A stretch of DNA of 64,000 bases from Candidatus Latescibacterota bacterium (GCA_965204375.1 OZ241986.1:3360001-3424000), one strand, 5' to 3'; positions 7,721 to 22,103 are shown, counted from the stretch's first letter. Notes: generated by a model not told the origin, from the sequence alone. Numbers and translations are program-made.

Positions 7721-8035
7721 TCAAGTGATTTCCCGAACAGTGGGCAAAGCTCGCACAACCGCCCCCACTTGTTGATCGGTGACAACGAGATCAAACTGCA
7801 TCTGGAGATTCAGCCAGAATAAAGGATCAACACCGAACCAGTGCCCGAATCGCAAAGCAATATCGCTATCTACAGAACACTTGCCAGCGATAATCTGACC
7901 AATGCGATCTGGCGGTACGTCAATCTGGCGTGCAAGCGTCGCTGGGGATACCCCAAATTCCGCCAATTCGTCTCGCAGAATCTCTCCGGGATGAACAACG
8001 CGCTTCAACATAGCGTAATACTCTATTGTTTTCAT
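7721..8035 (-). CDS. higA: HigA-family antitoxin (HTH), no adjacent HigB
   Basis: HPGEILRDEL...IALRFGHWFGVDPLFWLNLQMQFDL; ATGA overlap with the upstream gene stop. Confidence 0.85.
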   Translation of the reverse strand: MKTIEYYAMLKRVVHPGEILRDELAEFGVSPATLARQIDVPPDRIGQIIAGKCSVDSDIALRFGHWFGVDPLFWLNLQMQFDLVVTDQQVGAVVRALPTVREIT

Positions 8036-9024
8036 TTGCTGCGATAGAAAGGCTTTAGTTCGCTGAATTTGGGAATAATTTTTACTTCAACTCGTCGGTT
8101 TACTTTCTCTATAGATTTTCTCAAACTACTGTCAATAGCAGCCGTCCTGAAATTTTCAATCTCTAAATCTTTCGAAGGTGCCATAGAAATCAGTTCATAA
8201 TATTCAGGCTTTAGGCCCATATTTTGCCAGAGCAGCGCAAGCGATTGGGTGCGTTCTTCAGAAAAATCGGAAACTGTTTGAGTATCTGTTTGTGTCTCTA
8301 TCGAAATTGCGAATTTTCCATTCTGTTGACGCACTTCTAAAGAACTTTTCAGTATCTGCCCAATACTTTCCAAACCCTCTTTTGCCGAGGGAAGTATAGT
8401 ATTGGCCTCCCACATACCCAAAGGCGAAAATACATCGCTGTAGATGGTGATCACGCCATCTCTTTTCACTTCAATTTTAGGTCTGGACTCCCCCAAACCT
8501 GCCGGAATAAGTTCATAATATTCTGACGTAAAGCCGATATTTCGCCAGAGCAGTACAAGCGATTGAGCGCGTTGATATGAAAGACGGTCGTTATTTTCGG
8601 AAGGTCCTATTGTATCTGTATGCCCCTCGACAACAATCCTGAATTTTTGACTTCGACCACGCCTCTCCAGATAGCTCTTCAACTTTTCTCCAATACGCTC
8701 CAAATCTTCCAGTGCCTGAGGAGGTATATCTTCTATTTTCCATTTGTTAAAGGGAAAGATGATATCGCTTTTGATAACAATCGTCCCCTTATTCACTTCG
8801 ACTTCTTCATCTGCCATAACCTGTTTTAACTCATCCAGGTCTCTAAAAATACTGCCAACGATTTCGTGCAGGCGGCTCAACTGAATCAGGCTAATATGAT
8901 TTTGCACAACCATCAATATGAGAAGAAACATTGCAAAAATAAAGATAGATGTGATAAGATCCGTAAAAGACGGCCATACATTTAGCGATGTATCCCTGCG
9001 AGTTCGTTTTTTATTCATCGCCAC
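8032..9024 (-). CDS. ZorB/MotB-like protein: TM helix with conserved Asp plus OmpA-like peptidoglycan-binding domain (internally duplicated)
   Basis: WPSFTD followed by TM helix; VEGHTD...NDRLSYQRAQS...NRRVEV OmpA motifs. Confidence 0.85.
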   Translation of the reverse strand: MAMNKKRTRRDTSLNVWPSFTDLITSIFIFAMFLLILMVVQNHISLIQLSRLHEIVGSIFRDLDELKQVMADEEVEVNKGTIVIKSDIIFPFNKWKIEDIPPQALEDLERIGEKLKSYLERRGRSQKFRIVVEGHTDTIGPSENNDRLSYQRAQSLVLLWRNIGFTSEYYELIPAGLGESRPKIEVKRDGVITIYSDVFSPLGMWEANTILPSAKEGLESIGQILKSSLEVRQQNGKFAISIETQTDTQTVSDFSEERTQSLALLWQNMGLKPEYYELISMAPSKDLEIENFRTAAIDSSLRKSIEKVNRRVEVKIIPKFSELKPFYRSK

Positions 9025-10725
9025 TTACTTACGATCCCATTGGCTGAAAAAACGCTTCAGTTTATTCATAAAACGTTTAAACCATATTGGTGGACGGCCA
9101 TATCCGCTTCTGAGTCTATCGCCTATATTCTGGACAGACCTGATAATCTGCTTTTGCTGGCTAACAACTTCGGGAAGATCATTCAGCGTTTGATTGACAC
9201 CAGCCAAATTCTCCACAAGCGTCTTATCCAGACGCTCTATGGCACTTTCAACGCCTGAAAGACCCTCGAGTAGAGAACCTACCTTTTCATCCAAGCCTGT
9301 GTTGTCTTTATCACTCAATTCCTGATGAAACTTCAGCAGATCTTGTTCAGTTGCATGAATTGCCCCCAGTTGCGCCTTTATGTTATCAAAAACAGGTGTA
9401 TAAGTTGGTTCATCGGGGTTGAGTTTTTGAAGTACCTGATATGTTTCTCCCATTGTCAATGCCAGGGTATCAATCCTCTTATCAAAGTCTTCGACCATTT
9501 GTTCTACTGCGGCTTTTAAGTTTTCCAACGGGTCACTGAGCCTGGTAAAATTAGATATATGTTCCACAAAATTCTCACCGGACTCGCGAATATCTTCGGC
9601 CCCACTGTTGAGTGCGTCGCAGGCGTTGTTGAGAGTCTCTAAAAGTGGTCCAAGCGTGGCTGATAATTTTCCAAAATGCGTTTCGAGCGCACGTTTGATA
9701 TGTTTCTCTTGATCCGCCACCAACTTTGAATGTCTCTGCGAGAAATCCTCAAGTGTGCGGCCCCATTTCTCGCTCACTTGCTTGTTAAAAGCACTCGCCT
9801 TGTTGAGCATGTCGCTGGTGTTGTTGAGAGTTTCCAAAAAAGGCTCAAATGATGCAGATACTTTCTCGAAATGTGCTTCGAGTGCGATTTTGAGATAGTC
9901 TGCCTGCCCCGACATAAATTCCGAATGTCTATCTGCAAGGACTTGAAAAGCCTCTTGAACTGCCTCTTTCAAGTCCACCTCAGGCAAAAACAACCTGAAT
10001 TTAGGAGCAATTTCTTCATTACAATAGGATTCTACCTCGTCAATCAGTTCAAATCTTTTCTTACTGAAACGCGAAAAACGGATATTCAGCACAATCATTC
10101 CCAATAACCCGGCGATACTGGTTACAAAGGCAAGCTCCATCCCCGAAAACGACTGGCCGATATTTTCCAGCATATCTGCCATGCTCTGTGTTGCTACCGC
10201 CGGGTCTGTTATCGTCGCGCTGTCTCTGGTATTTTGGATAATGCTTTCAATCGGCAAAATGACCTGGTAAAGGCCAACAAAAGTTCCGAGAAGCCCCAAT
10301 ACGATCAAACTGTTGCTTGCCGAGCGAATCCTTTCATCATCGCTACAAAGATATTCCTCTTCTCTTTGCACCACTTCATCGACGACTGGTGGTTTATTTT
10401 GGCGGTGCCCCGCCCAGAAAAGCTTCAGCCATTTCTGTGTCGTGGAATTTGAAATAGAATTGATCGCATCTACTTCTCGACGGCGATATCTTCCGGCACT
10501 AAACCTCGGATATTTTTTTCCCCAACTTTTCAAGTCGTCCAGTGCTTTTCTCGATTCGGTTATATCACGCTTCATTTTTGACAAAGGTCGCCAGCCTCGT
10601 ATATAAAAAAACAGGGCCATAAAGCACAAATAAGCCCAAAAAAAATAATACCAAATCCATGACCAGACTCCTGAAAAAATTTGGCCTCCTTGTGTTTCGG
10701 TCCATTGCAAAAATAAATCGGACAT
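9025..10725 (-). CDS. ZorA/MotA-TolQ-ExbB-like proton channel protein with long cytoplasmic helical tail
   Basis: Three TM segments, LGLLGTFVGL and AFVTSIAG motifs, then more than 300 aa of helical tail; stop abuts the ZorB-like start; start set at MSDLF. Confidence 0.8.
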   Translation of the reverse strand: MSDLFLQWTETQGGQIFSGVWSWIWYYFFWAYLCFMALFFYIRGWRPLSKMKRDITESRKALDDLKSWGKKYPRFSAGRYRRREVDAINSISNSTTQKWLKLFWAGHRQNKPPVVDEVVQREEEYLCSDDERIRSASNSLIVLGLLGTFVGLYQVILPIESIIQNTRDSATITDPAVATQSMADMLENIGQSFSGMELAFVTSIAGLLGMIVLNIRFSRFSKKRFELIDEVESYCNEEIAPKFRLFLPEVDLKEAVQEAFQVLADRHSEFMSGQADYLKIALEAHFEKVSASFEPFLETLNNTSDMLNKASAFNKQVSEKWGRTLEDFSQRHSKLVADQEKHIKRALETHFGKLSATLGPLLETLNNACDALNSGAEDIRESGENFVEHISNFTRLSDPLENLKAAVEQMVEDFDKRIDTLALTMGETYQVLQKLNPDEPTYTPVFDNIKAQLGAIHATEQDLLKFHQELSDKDNTGLDEKVGSLLEGLSGVESAIERLDKTLVENLAGVNQTLNDLPEVVSQQKQIIRSVQNIGDRLRSGYGRPPIWFKRFMNKLKRFFSQWDRK

Positions 10726-20840: not shown

Positions 20841-20843
20841 TAC

Positions 20844-22103
20844 CTATGCCTCTTCATCTCCATTGAGAGGATAACAGTACAACATTGTGTTATTTTCTTG
20901 TTGCATCAAGACATATACACTATGCCCAAAACATGCTGGTGCAGTCATTGGTTTTAGACCGGTCTTGAGTGACCACAAGCGCAGACGAGAAATGCCATTA
21001 TGGCGGTCAAAATGGAACAGGGTCACGAGGGGTAATCCATTAGGGTCTTCATTGTAACCCACAACAAGATTTCCAAAAGAGGCACTCTTATCCATCTCTC
21101 TCATGGAAACCTTATCGCTTCTATCAACGCTGCCATCCAGAGGATTCACTAAATTTATGTCATCAGATGTGACCACAACGAACCAGTACTGACCATCAAT
21201 GTCTATCGTATAAAGGGATCCCGCCTGTAGATCAGGTATAGTTTCTTGAAGGATTTGAGGGTTATCCTTAGTGAAAGAAATTATCCTGACATCGCCACTC
21301 TCTTGTCTGGACGCTAAGCGAAGCAGGCCTTCACGATTTGAGCCTACCCAGTGGCTCCTCCCATCTTCTAAAAACTCTTCATAAAGATCCAAGACACCTT
21401 CATCTGTCAACAAGGCCATGTTATTATCACCTAAAAGAGCCAACAGAAAATCCTCGCCTTGTAGTGGAACCAGCGTTTCAACATCAAATGGCATATCTAT
21501 TTCTCGAGGTTTGTAAGCAGTTTCCTCTCCTTCTGTCCAAAAATCGCTTATGGATGGTGCATCCCCTATTTTTATTTTTTGACTATCTTTTTCAATTACG
21601 AACAAACGGCTTTTGAACAGCCAAAATTTGTGTACCCCTTCAGCACATAGCCGCCACTTTGTGTTCATAGCCATATAGTCGCTGCTGAGCGCAGACACCG
21701 GAAAAACAAAGAGATTGTCCTGAGTGTTCAGGACATATACCCACCACTGGTCAAAACAGACTTGGGCGATCCCTTCAGTAATGCGGGGAAGAAAAACAGG
21801 TATGTTTTCGTGGAGAAGATTGGGAAAAACGACCATATTTCCGGTAGTTTTCTCGACAACCAATGCGACACCGAATATATTCAAGAGCAAATCAGGGTTT
21901 CTAAGCGGAACCAAGTGTTCCTTGGGCGGACTGCTTTCTGCGTGAGCTATGGGTGCTGCAACAAGGGATACTTTATCTGCGAGACTGCCACATTGAGAGC
22001 AAAAATTGGCGAGCGGTGGGTTGTTTTCAGCACCACACGCATTACATTTCCAAGTGTTTTTTGTCCAATTCCATCTGACCATCGTATTGTCCCAAGAAGC
22101 CAA
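20844..22103 (-). CDS. Zinc-ribbon protein with probable beta-propeller-like body, unknown function
   Basis: WKCNACG...FCSQCG; remainder is short beta-strand-like repeats; first gene of the operon (start TTG 22103 or ATG 22082). Confidence 0.6.
   Translation of the reverse strand: MASWDNTMVRWNWTKNTWKCNACGAENNPPLANFCSQCGSLADKVSLVAAPIAHAESSPPKEHLVPLRNPDLLLNIFGVALVVEKTTGNMVVFPNLLHENIPVFLPRITEGIAQVCFDQWWVYVLNTQDNLFVFPVSALSSDYMAMNTKWRLCAEGVHKFWLFKSRLFVIEKDSQKIKIGDAPSISDFWTEGEETAYKPREIDMPFDVETLVPLQGEDFLLALLGDNNMALLTDEGVLDLYEEFLEDGRSHWVGSNREGLLRLASRQESGDVRIISFTKDNPQILQETIPDLQAGSLYTIDIDGQYWFVVVTSDDINLVNPLDGSVDRSDKVSMREMDKSASFGNLVVGYNEDPNGLPLVTLFHFDRHNGISRLRLWSLKTGLKPMTAPACFGHSVYVLMQQENNTMLYCYPLNGDEEA

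Follow-up and report, generated by a model that had tools for sequence, protein, structure and literature searches.

Does an eight-gene block in which a Zorya-like motor pair stands next to a tubulin-like GTPase, an Hsp70, and a GrpE-like protein encode a single system, and, if so, of what kind? The question is raised by positions 8032 to 22103 of a 64,000-nucleotide (nt) stretch of Candidatus Latescibacterota bacterium (GCA_965204375.1 OZ241986.1:3360001-3424000), which is called the window here and whose positions are counted from its first letter. A sequence-only reading had described the region as eight co-oriented, tightly packed genes in an AT-richer island. Calling of open reading frames (ORFs) recovered eight minus-strand ORFs with exactly the boundaries first assigned to them. 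From gene 1 to gene 8, the junctions measured 3, 15, 9, 4, and 21 nt, followed by an 11-nt overlap of genes 6 and 7 and direct abutment (0 nt) of genes 7 and 8. The GC content was 0.41 to 0.49 across 8 to 23 kb compared to 0.50 to 0.56 in most flanking kilobases, and the description of the island thus agreed with both the coordinates and the GC profile. In a promoter and terminator scan, sites were fewer than, or no more numerous than, those in shuffled sequences. It is very probable that the eight genes form one functional unit.

The adjacency of the motor genes to the tubulin and Hsp70 genes, which had been set beforehand as the refuting test, was conserved in all 15 of the other Latescibacterota loci, distributed over two lineages. 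Within the genus of the window, an Hsp70-like gene was detected in 6 of 21 genomes, counting the window's own, and the eight-gene order was retained in all five other carriers, one of which was cut by a contig end. Further loci were obtained by scanning one genome per species. The gene order was the same throughout the 15 loci, with the motor pair adjoining the tubulin and Hsp70 genes each time; gene 1 was first in 14 of them, and the 15th was cut by a contig end. Hsp70 identity was 58 to 71% for six loci and 35 to 37% for the other nine. Use of the Hsp70-like protein as a query against 168 Latescibacterota species genomes identified 16 carriers, belonging to 4 of 49 genera. When the same 168 genomes were surveyed with a ZorA-like N-terminal profile, an identical set of 16 carriers was obtained, with the two matches lying 1 to 4 kb apart. 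Because the 16 genomes are related to one another and represent two deep lineages, this count demonstrates strict coinheritance rather than 16 independent events.

Several features pointed to movement of the block as a whole. A copy in another family was 75% identical, compared to identities of 61 to 73% inside the genus. The flanks differed between three loci (L022, L016, and L018; ten flanking proteins scanned) and consisted of ordinary genes, including those for a glycogen debranching enzyme, a TonB-dependent receptor, PepX, NamZ, and a sulfatase. Judged by its patchy spread, differing flanks, low GC content, and higher cross-family identity, the block appears to be a transferred cassette. 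Broken copies were also detected. In L026, the tubulin gene is interrupted at 6782 to 7792 by an insertion with a 336-aa (amino acid) ORF that we take for a transposase; the ZorA-like gene of G102 is in two pieces; and L016 and G011 have a truncated ZorB-like gene or none. L067 also bears insertions: an IS3-type element (rve, HTH_21) occurs three times between 16741 and 22617, interspersed with genes that lie downstream of the Hsp70-like one. Damage of this kind is typical of accessory genes that carry a cost.

A scan of metagenomes with the tubulin alignment yielded 80 loci, whose neighboring genes were called with our own gene-family hidden Markov models (HMMs). An Hsp70-like gene was present in 32 of the 80 loci and in 24 of the 38 that were at least 15 kb long. 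The gene-2 family was found in 21 loci, a gene-3-like protease in 11, and a gene-6-like protein in 2. In two of the tubulin-Hsp70 loci, the Hsp70-like gene is followed, one or two genes on, by a gene for a protein passing Pfam GrpE (26.7 and 28.5 bits). A second architecture was observed in nine loci (L110, L121, L135, L137, L138, and L143 to L146), in which a tubulin gene of ∼1,330 aa is immediately followed by a gene-3-like protease gene. An Hsp70-like gene was located ∼6 to 9 kb upstream in seven of these (L110, L121, L137, L138, and L143 to L145) and was absent from the shorter L135 and L146.

The motor pair

Genes 7 and 8 had been read from the sequence as ZorAB-like, and profile searches bore this out. 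Gene 7 (9025 to 10755, minus strand; 576 aa) encodes a ZorA-like protein with three transmembrane (TM) helices in a TM scan, followed by a helical tail. The protein matched PADLOC ZorA models at E values down to 9.7e-8 and scored 21.0 bits with Pfam MotA_ExbB, just under the cut-off of 22.9. Alignment of orthologues detected invariant LGLLGTF.GL and GM..AF.TS..GL motifs, and Thr158 in TM2 and Thr212/Ser213 in TM3 were likewise invariant. The true start of the gene is probably the ATG at residue 11. A Foldseek search with the AlphaFold2 (AF2) model returned ExbB (5sv1), TolQ (9ddm and 8odt), and ZorA (8qyd and 8vvn) as top matches, each at a probability of 1.0. The tail helices span residues 259 to 575 by DSSP of the AF2 model, in a region where the model confidence score (pLDDT) was below 50. 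This C-terminal tail of ∼315 residues is built of repeats (internal repeat with 39% identity over 54 aa; E = 9e-14) that were invisible to Tandem Repeats Finder at the DNA level. Orthologues ranged from 529 to 633 aa, with tail lengths differing by whole blocks. The description of gene 7 as MotA-like with a long tail was therefore retained on the basis of its three TM helices, ExbB/TolQ/ZorA folds, and helical tail, with the Pfam score slightly below threshold.

Gene 8 (8032 to 9024, minus strand; 330 aa) encodes a ZorB-like protein with a single TM helix and an OmpA domain (Pfam, 5.9e-11), which matched PADLOC ZorB1 at 5.3e-16 over residues 4 to 157. Asp22 of the WPSFTD motif (W17 to D22), singled out from the start as a residue worth mutating, was invariant in 15 of 15 sequences. 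In the lineage of the window, the OmpA domain is interrupted by an additional, degenerate OmpA-like copy, a feature that the sequence-only reading had overlooked; the duplication is visible in the DNA as 8188 to 8264 and 8506 to 8582, at 79% identity. The ZorB-like protein of the deeper lineage has a single domain and a length of 218 to 224 aa.

In order to place the motor within its family, the ZorA-like N-terminal profile was used in a full HMMER search of 1.84 billion representatives, which returned 1,231 proteins at E values of ≤1e-3, 35 at ≤1e-10, and 3 at ≤1e-30. The 112 best matches of at least 200 residues were taken as the nearest relatives. Among these, 92 matched the PADLOC ZorA1 model, and at an E value of 1e-5 the NCBIfam models ZorA_2, ZorA_4, ZorA_1, and ZorA_3 were matched by 24, 8, 4, and 1 proteins, respectively. 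NCBIfam also contains ExbB, TolQ, and MotA models, none of which was matched by any of the 112 relatives at this E value, and gene 7 itself likewise matched no TolQ or ExbB model of that collection at 1e-5. Of 38 listed close relatives of gene 7, 13 carried PF01618 in precomputed tables. Assignment of the pair to a flagellar, Tol, or Ton unit was rejected, as only ZorA models matched. Neither gene reached a curated family threshold (NCBIfam ZorA_1 to ZorA_4 and ZorB1), and PADLOC models for ZorC, D, E, F, and G had no match in the other six proteins, where only trypsin-domain matches were obtained. The possibility that the cluster fits a defined system model in full was examined, and no PADLOC model covered the other six genes. 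Because the curated cut-offs were missed and the Zorya effectors are absent, genes 7 and 8 are classed, on sequence criteria, as a pair of the ZorAB branch in a broad sense, outside the defined Zorya types.

Relatives of the pair were also found elsewhere. In one Acidobacteriota genome (1 of 401 genomes searched), kin of genes 7 and 8 encode a ZorA-like protein of 507 aa and a ZorB-like protein of 356 aa (L164, 8006 to 10596, minus strand), which were matched by the motor HMMs at 9.8e-18 and 5.3e-10. The neighboring proteins of 489 and 542 aa had no PDB sequence match in a phmmer search. The genomes behind four other loci (L031, L032, L039, and L040) gave no match to the ZorA-like profile. A 672-aa protein from European Nucleotide Archive metagenome assemblies (P0067) matched the profile at 8.5e-54 and represents a third lineage of the ZorA-like protein.

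The tubulin-Hsp70 core and its partners

Gene 4 (14691 to 18107, minus strand; 1,138 aa) encodes an FtsZl1/Tubulin_2 GTPase. The Pfam Tubulin_2 domain was detected at residues 33 to 397 with an E value of 6.9e-67 (226.6 bits, compared to a cut-off of 27), and ∼740 further residues lie beyond it. In an alignment of 15 sequences that included one Bryobacteraceae relative, the GLGGTGK motif (G36 to K42) was invariant, as were G202, G203, T204, G205, and G207 of the GGTGSG loop, with S206 being present in at least 90%. The tubulin-like assignment and its GGTGSG loop were thus both upheld, the former far above threshold.

Gene 5 (11675 to 14686, minus strand; 1,003 aa) had been read as a zinc ribbon joined to an Hsp70. 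A match to Pfam HSP70 (PF00012; 6.3e-12, 44.9 bits, cut-off 20.6), a profile match to DnaK nucleotide-binding domains in the PDB at 6.5e-16, and an invariant four-Cys ribbon (C16, C19, C30, and C33; 10 sequences) confirmed both elements. The ribbon is followed by ∼350 residues without a family assignment, the Hsp70-type nucleotide-binding domain, and ∼130 C-terminal residues. D392, K495, E595, and D622, which we take to be equivalent to the catalytic residues of DnaK, and a GGGTTD motif were invariant in the same 10 sequences. No substrate-binding domain was found, the PDB matches reaching only to about position 323 of DnaK and leaving the last 130 residues unmatched. From its sequence, this Hsp70 seems to consist of the nucleotide-binding domain only.

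Gene 6 (10745 to 11653, minus strand; 302 aa) encodes a protein with a TM helix at residues 1 to 28, seen in this lineage only, a helical region, and a GrpE-like C-terminal domain. The N-terminal TM segment of the proposed TM-GrpE architecture was present; the GrpE part found less support than the label implied. An hhalign comparison with 16 canonical GrpE proteins of the same clade gave an E value of 4.6e-4 at 33% probability over 145 columns extending to both C termini, while four unrelated control pairs gave E values of 0.3 to 0.8. The gene-6 HMM also matched a metagenomic protein (L068, 7392 to 8921) at 1e-4, and that protein passes Pfam GrpE (26.7 bits, cut-off 25.8). The protein of the window itself had no Pfam match at an E value of 0.01, and a profile search of PDB sequences retrieved no GrpE. 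The AF2 model was poor (pLDDT of 48), and an Atlas look-up returned GrpE at 0.82, which we treat as a lead only.

The remaining three genes precede the tubulin gene. Gene 1 (20844 to 22103, minus strand; 419 aa) encodes a cytoplasmic protein in which a TM scan detected no TM segment. Its N-terminal, zinc-ribbon-like CxxC..CxxC start, on which the original label was founded, is present; the Pfam zinc-ribbon families, however, matched at 2e-3 to 6e-3, all below their cut-offs, and a profile search of PDB sequences gave no match under an E value of 0.1. Gene 2 (19164 to 20840, minus strand; 558 aa) encodes a membrane protein with a signal-like N terminus, a periplasmic domain, a single TM helix at 414 to 444, and a cytoplasmic tail. 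In 17 sequences with identities of 17 to 89%, the residues D28, S30, S32, M33, T91, T111, D112, and N113 of a DxSxS..T..TD motif were invariant, a pattern that is presumably that of a von Willebrand factor A (vWA) metal ion-dependent adhesion site (MIDAS). The protein is homologous to one encoded upstream of the tubulin gene in a Bryobacteraceae locus (hhalign, 96.7%; E = 3.3e-10), and an Atlas look-up returned vWA at 0.87, again as a lead only.

Gene 3 (18117 to 19148, minus strand; 343 aa) encodes a membrane-anchored, trypsin-like serine protease. The proposed trypsin-3TM layout was recovered in full: a Pfam Trypsin_2 match at 4.9e-30, a lipobox-like signal, a periplasmic protease domain, and three C-terminal TM segments at 236 to 271, 278 to 304, and 312 to 341, with a triad of H69, D100, and S171 that was invariant in 15 of 15 sequences and contains the expected Ser. 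NCBIfam DegP, HtrA, and DegS models matched at 1e-33 to 1.5e-22 over the protease core only. As HtrA-type scores were at most 117 bits against cut-offs of 250 to 800, and as no PDZ domain was found in Pfam or NCBIfam searches, gene 3 is regarded as a trypsin-fold protease and not as an HtrA proper. Overall, the enzymes of the block are predicted to be active from the invariance of the tubulin T1/T4 loops (except S206, at least 90%), the Asp/Lys/Glu/Asp set of the Hsp70, and the protease triad.

Known systems and competing explanations

According to the available part of one report, the ZorA5B2 complex of Zorya is a proton-driven motor whose tail passes a signal of phage entry to soluble effectors; the motor has a Thr/Ser ion filter and an essential Asp and is activated after a phage perturbs the envelope, when the peptidoglycan-binding domain of ZorB anchors, the tail of ZorA turns, and ZorC and ZorD are recruited (PMC11946911). 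In the available text of Mariano et al. (2025, PMC11890865), three Zorya subtypes are described, all recruiting a nuclease-like complex. Genes 7 and 8 resemble this motor in the A subunit, with its MotA/ExbB fold, three TM helices, and long cytoplasmic tail that is all helical (in a model with a pLDDT below 50 there), in the single TM helix, invariant Asp, and OmpA-type peptidoglycan-binding domain of the B subunit, in their adjacency in A-B order, and in having nearest relatives that match only ZorA models. They differ in that the block contains no ZorC, D, E, F, or G and that both proteins score far under the curated ZorA/ZorB cut-offs. The tail measures ∼315 residues compared to a deleted range of 223 to 729 in Escherichia coli ZorA, as far as the available text gives it, and the partners are instead a tubulin-like GTPase, an Hsp70, a GrpE-like protein, a protease, and a MIDAS-motif protein.

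The core of the block recalls systems predicted on other grounds. The link of FtsZl1/Tubulin_2 proteins to vWA-containing operons, cited in the sequence-only reading, matches the main text of Makarova and Koonin (2010), in which FtsZl1 operons with vWA proteins, a GTPase, a kinase, and, in several genomes, OmpA-domain proteins are described and membrane remodeling is proposed. Shared features are a Tubulin_2 protein extended by a long C-terminal part, a neighboring protein of vWA type (vWA-like and unproven in the block), many membrane proteins, an OmpA-domain protein in several genomes, and a patchy spread with horizontal transfer. In contrast to the block, the OmpA proteins are treated there as outer-membrane barrels, and Hsp70, GrpE, and MotA are unmentioned in that main text, a comparison that does not extend to its operon tables and unnamed families B1 to B9. 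Kaur et al. (2020), in the text available, predicted GTPase-centered (DO-GTPase/GAP1-N2) conflict systems in which tubulin forms one theme and Hsp70 with GrpE another, and proposed regulated NTP-dependent assembly as a working principle. Those systems share with the block zinc ribbons, trypsin-like peptidases, and vWA proteins with TM helices (vWA-like and unproven in the block). They differ from it in three respects: the tubulin and Hsp70-GrpE themes are nonoverlapping there and occur in Firmicutes and Actinobacteria, whereas both stand in one operon here; MotA has 0 occurrences in that text; and the block encodes no P-loop GTPase, with the Walker A motif (G....GK[ST]) absent from all eight proteins in a motif scan and no GTPase family found in Pfam or NCBIfam. 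A reading of the block as a DO-GTPase system was rejected for the absence of a P-loop. Tol-Pal and Ton units are similar in fold (ExbB and TolQ are among the best matches to the membrane domain of gene 7) and in being 5:2-type proton motors acting on the envelope. They differ in that an OmpA domain is lacking from TolR and ExbD and a long tail from TolQ and ExbB, and in that the block has no TolA- or TonB-like partner.

The novelty first claimed for the combination was thus upheld in part. No paper was found that places a ZorAB- or MotAB-type motor with tubulin or Hsp70, in a search that was thin on subscription journals and supplements, and a 2025 survey of MotAB relatives contained 0 occurrences of either term. 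The associations of tubulin with Hsp70/GrpE, vWA, and OmpA proteins, on the other hand, had already been published.

Taken as a whole, the block appears to be best explained as an envelope-spanning system, inherited and transferred as a cassette, in which a Zorya-type sensor motor is coupled to a nucleotide-switch polymer module; we hold this explanation with evenly balanced confidence. A conflict or defense role seems to us equally balanced between yes and no. The core would consist of the MIDAS-motif membrane protein, the FtsZl1 GTPase, the Hsp70, and a GrpE-like exchange factor, to which a ZorAB-like proton motor, a membrane-anchored periplasmic serine protease, and a zinc-ribbon protein would have been added in Latescibacterota. 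Envelope damage, for example by phage entry, would be sensed in the periplasm by the ZorB-like domain, the MIDAS domain, and the protease. Proton flow via Asp22 would then turn the ZorA-like pentamer with its tail, by analogy with Zorya, and the tail, together with the cytoplasmic end of the MIDAS-motif protein, would trigger the tubulin-like GTPase to assemble at the affected part of the membrane, with no nuclease involved. The ATPase cycle of the Hsp70/GrpE pair may set the threshold for assembly or dismantle the polymer. The outcome could be local membrane remodeling or sealing, or a growth arrest that aborts infection. Our confidence in this specific order of events, in which the motor or the protease triggers a chaperone-controlled polymer, is low. 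Tentatively, and with some doubt, the block may even represent a fourth kind of Zorya-type system, in which a rotating tail nucleates or releases a tubulin polymer at the site of damage and Hsp70/GrpE serves as a clock of assembly and disassembly.

A number of observations weigh against the favored explanation. The motor genes scored poorly with curated models, gene 7 reaching 24.9 bits (5.6e-6) with NCBIfam ZorA_1 against a cut-off of 190 and gene 8 reaching 25.8 bits with ZorB1 against a cut-off of 400. In profile searches of PDB sequences, full-length gene 7 gave coiled-coil noise only, and its N-terminal part gave nothing significant, the solved ZorA 8vvn appearing only at an E value of 0.9. 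The AF2 model of gene 7 had a mean pLDDT of 59, with 70 to 90 in the membrane part and less than 50 over most of the tail, and its Foldseek matches had E values of only 4e-3 to 4e-2 and TM-scores to the target of 0.4 to 0.53. No nuclease, helicase, or other classical effector was recognizable among the eight proteins in Pfam, PADLOC, and NCBIfam scans, as had been noted from the sequence. The GrpE-like label of gene 6 is reasonable and moderately supported by sequence comparison, short of proof. For gene 2, the vWA designation was sustained solely by the invariant MIDAS-like motif: 0 of 10 relatives carried vWA or any other Pfam family, the profile found no vWA match in the PDB, and hhalign comparisons with true vWA proteins of the same clade gave E values of 0.027 and 0.033. 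Because this support from Pfam, PDB profile, and hhalign is weak or empty, the protein is labeled MIDAS-motif, vWA-like, and unproven.

The genomic context supplied further counterevidence. As the carriers represent four genera in two deep lineages, the perfect co-occurrence of motor and core could rest on one or two ancestral events. The neighbors scanned in three other loci (ten proteins) were metabolic genes and not defense islands. The Acidobacteriota motor pair had no tubulin or Hsp70 within 19.9 kb. Genes for ZorA-like or ZorB-like proteins were present in 0 of the 80 metagenomic tubulin loci, a zero that is meaningful because the same two HMMs detect the distant Acidobacteriota pair. 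Since the core without the motor is common, the motor is an add-on and not a requirement. These results indicated that the core (MIDAS-motif protein, tubulin, Hsp70, and GrpE-type protein) is widespread and that the motor pair was therefore added to it, so far only in Latescibacterota.

The main rival to the defense-type explanation is a nondefense machine for membrane remodeling or envelope maintenance, the function proposed for FtsZl1 operons by Makarova and Koonin, in which the polymer would shape or repair the inner membrane (for example, when vesicles or compartments form) and the motor would act like Tol-Pal or Ton, supplying energy and a cell wall anchor. The published tie of FtsZl1 to vWA and OmpA proteins, in the text available, favors such a role, as do the TM or signal segments detected in five of the eight proteins by a TM scan, the presence of TolQ and ExbB beside ZorA among the best folds, the housekeeping flanks of the other loci scanned, and the lack of a nuclease or toxin-like effector. 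A basic cell-biology machine, however, would be expected to be kept more evenly than one carried by just 16 of the 168 species genomes and, within its own genus, by 6 of 21, with signs of transfer between families and several broken copies, and among the nearest relatives of the motor the matches were to ZorA models, with none to TolQ, ExbB, or MotA models. We regard this alternative as unlikely. The same patchiness is ill-suited to a general stress system and bears on the idea of an envelope-stress or protein quality control module, in which the protease and the MIDAS-motif protein would report envelope proteins that are misfolded or damaged, Hsp70/GrpE would handle membrane-located clients, and the tubulin and motor would act as a scaffold. 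The similarity of the protease to DegP/HtrA/DegS cores, the intact catalytic residues of the Hsp70 ATPase with a GrpE-like partner, and the membrane anchoring of that partner in this lineage are consistent with such a module; yet a PDZ domain is missing from the protease, whose scores fall well short of all HtrA cut-offs, the Hsp70 substrate-binding domain appeared in no search, and the genome encodes a separate canonical GrpE and, at another place on the chromosome, shows a weak DnaK-type match. We judge it improbable.

It is very improbable, in our assessment, that the block merely juxtaposes two unrelated systems, one of them built on tubulin and Hsp70 and the other an orphan ZorAB-like pair whose partners are elsewhere. 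Such an arrangement would agree with the core lacking the motor in 80 of 80 metagenomic loci, with the related motor pair lacking the core in one Acidobacteriota genome, and with the origin of all co-occurrences in one phylum. It is difficult to reconcile with the identical order and adjacency in 15 of 15 loci from lineages at 35 to 37% identity, the identical 16-genome sets from two surveys, the 11-nt overlap of the GrpE-like and ZorA-like genes and abutment of the ZorA-like and ZorB-like genes, the movement of the whole block into another family, and the absence from it of any match to ZorC, D, E, F, or G models.

If the block is indeed a fourth kind of Zorya-type system, it would be the first known link of a 5:2 rotary ion motor with a tubulin-type cytoskeletal GTPase and would imply an immunity role for the widespread FtsZl1-Hsp70 systems. 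Predictions dating from 2010 and 2020 cast FtsZl1 proteins and the associated Hsp70s as membrane or conflict machines, and the literature searched contained no experimental work on them. The motor hints that the tubulin-Hsp70 core responds to the envelope, and the core hints that Zorya-type motors can drive something besides DNA cleavage. In the available text of the Zorya papers, every known type is described as ending in a nuclease-like effector, and the question is raised of how far motor parts were reused for defense (PMC11890865, PMC11946911). The block is of interest to the fields of both phage defense and the bacterial cytoskeleton. Because it is compact (14 kb, eight genes) and offers Asp22, GGTGSG, Ser171, and the Hsp70 Asp/Lys as targets for point mutation, a direct test in a laboratory host is possible.

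Neighborhood of the cassette in the window

Directly upstream of gene 1 and co-oriented with it are a DUF5615 gene (22497 to 22865, minus strand; 7.4e-24) and a DUF433 gene (22862 to 23092, minus strand; 1.1e-25), a pair that we take to be a PIN-like toxin with its antitoxin. Two paralogous proteins with Schlafen/AlbA_2 and HATPase_c_4 domains are encoded at 23762 to 25042 (minus strand) and 41682 to 42989 (plus strand), the second gene being partly overlapped by one for a 920-aa AAA_21/AAA_23 ATPase (38996 to 41758, plus strand). A type I restriction-modification set occupies 51224 to 61352 on the plus strand, with hsdR at 51224 to 53593, hsdS at 58383 to 59642, and hsdM at 59661 to 61352. 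It is interrupted at 54 to 58 kb by a stretch with a GC content of 0.37 to 0.40 that holds a 755-aa ORF (55433 to 57700) matching no Pfam family. With DUF433/DUF5615, Schlafen/AlbA_2, AAA ATPase, and type I restriction-modification genes all within 40 kb, the neighborhood has a defense-like look, which counts toward the explanation favored here.

A protein of 686 aa with BatA and VWA_2 domains is encoded at 27650 to 29710 (minus strand) beside topoisomerase I; this is a conventional vWA protein with no relation to gene 2. At the other end of the block, a 104-aa ORF (7721 to 8035, minus strand) shares 4 nt with the end of gene 8 and is 83 to 89% conserved in two genomes of the genus. This ORF lies downstream of gene 8 in the window and in G013 and upstream of gene 1 in G020, a shift that could be explained by passage of the block through a circle; a repeat search at the cassette ends detected no flanking direct or inverted repeats. 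Between the cassette and a Xer-type recombinase gene (6131 to 7018) lies a 157-aa ORF (7118 to 7591), which contains a 21-nt periodic repeat at 7213 to 7291 in the form of three overlapping 37-nt copies.

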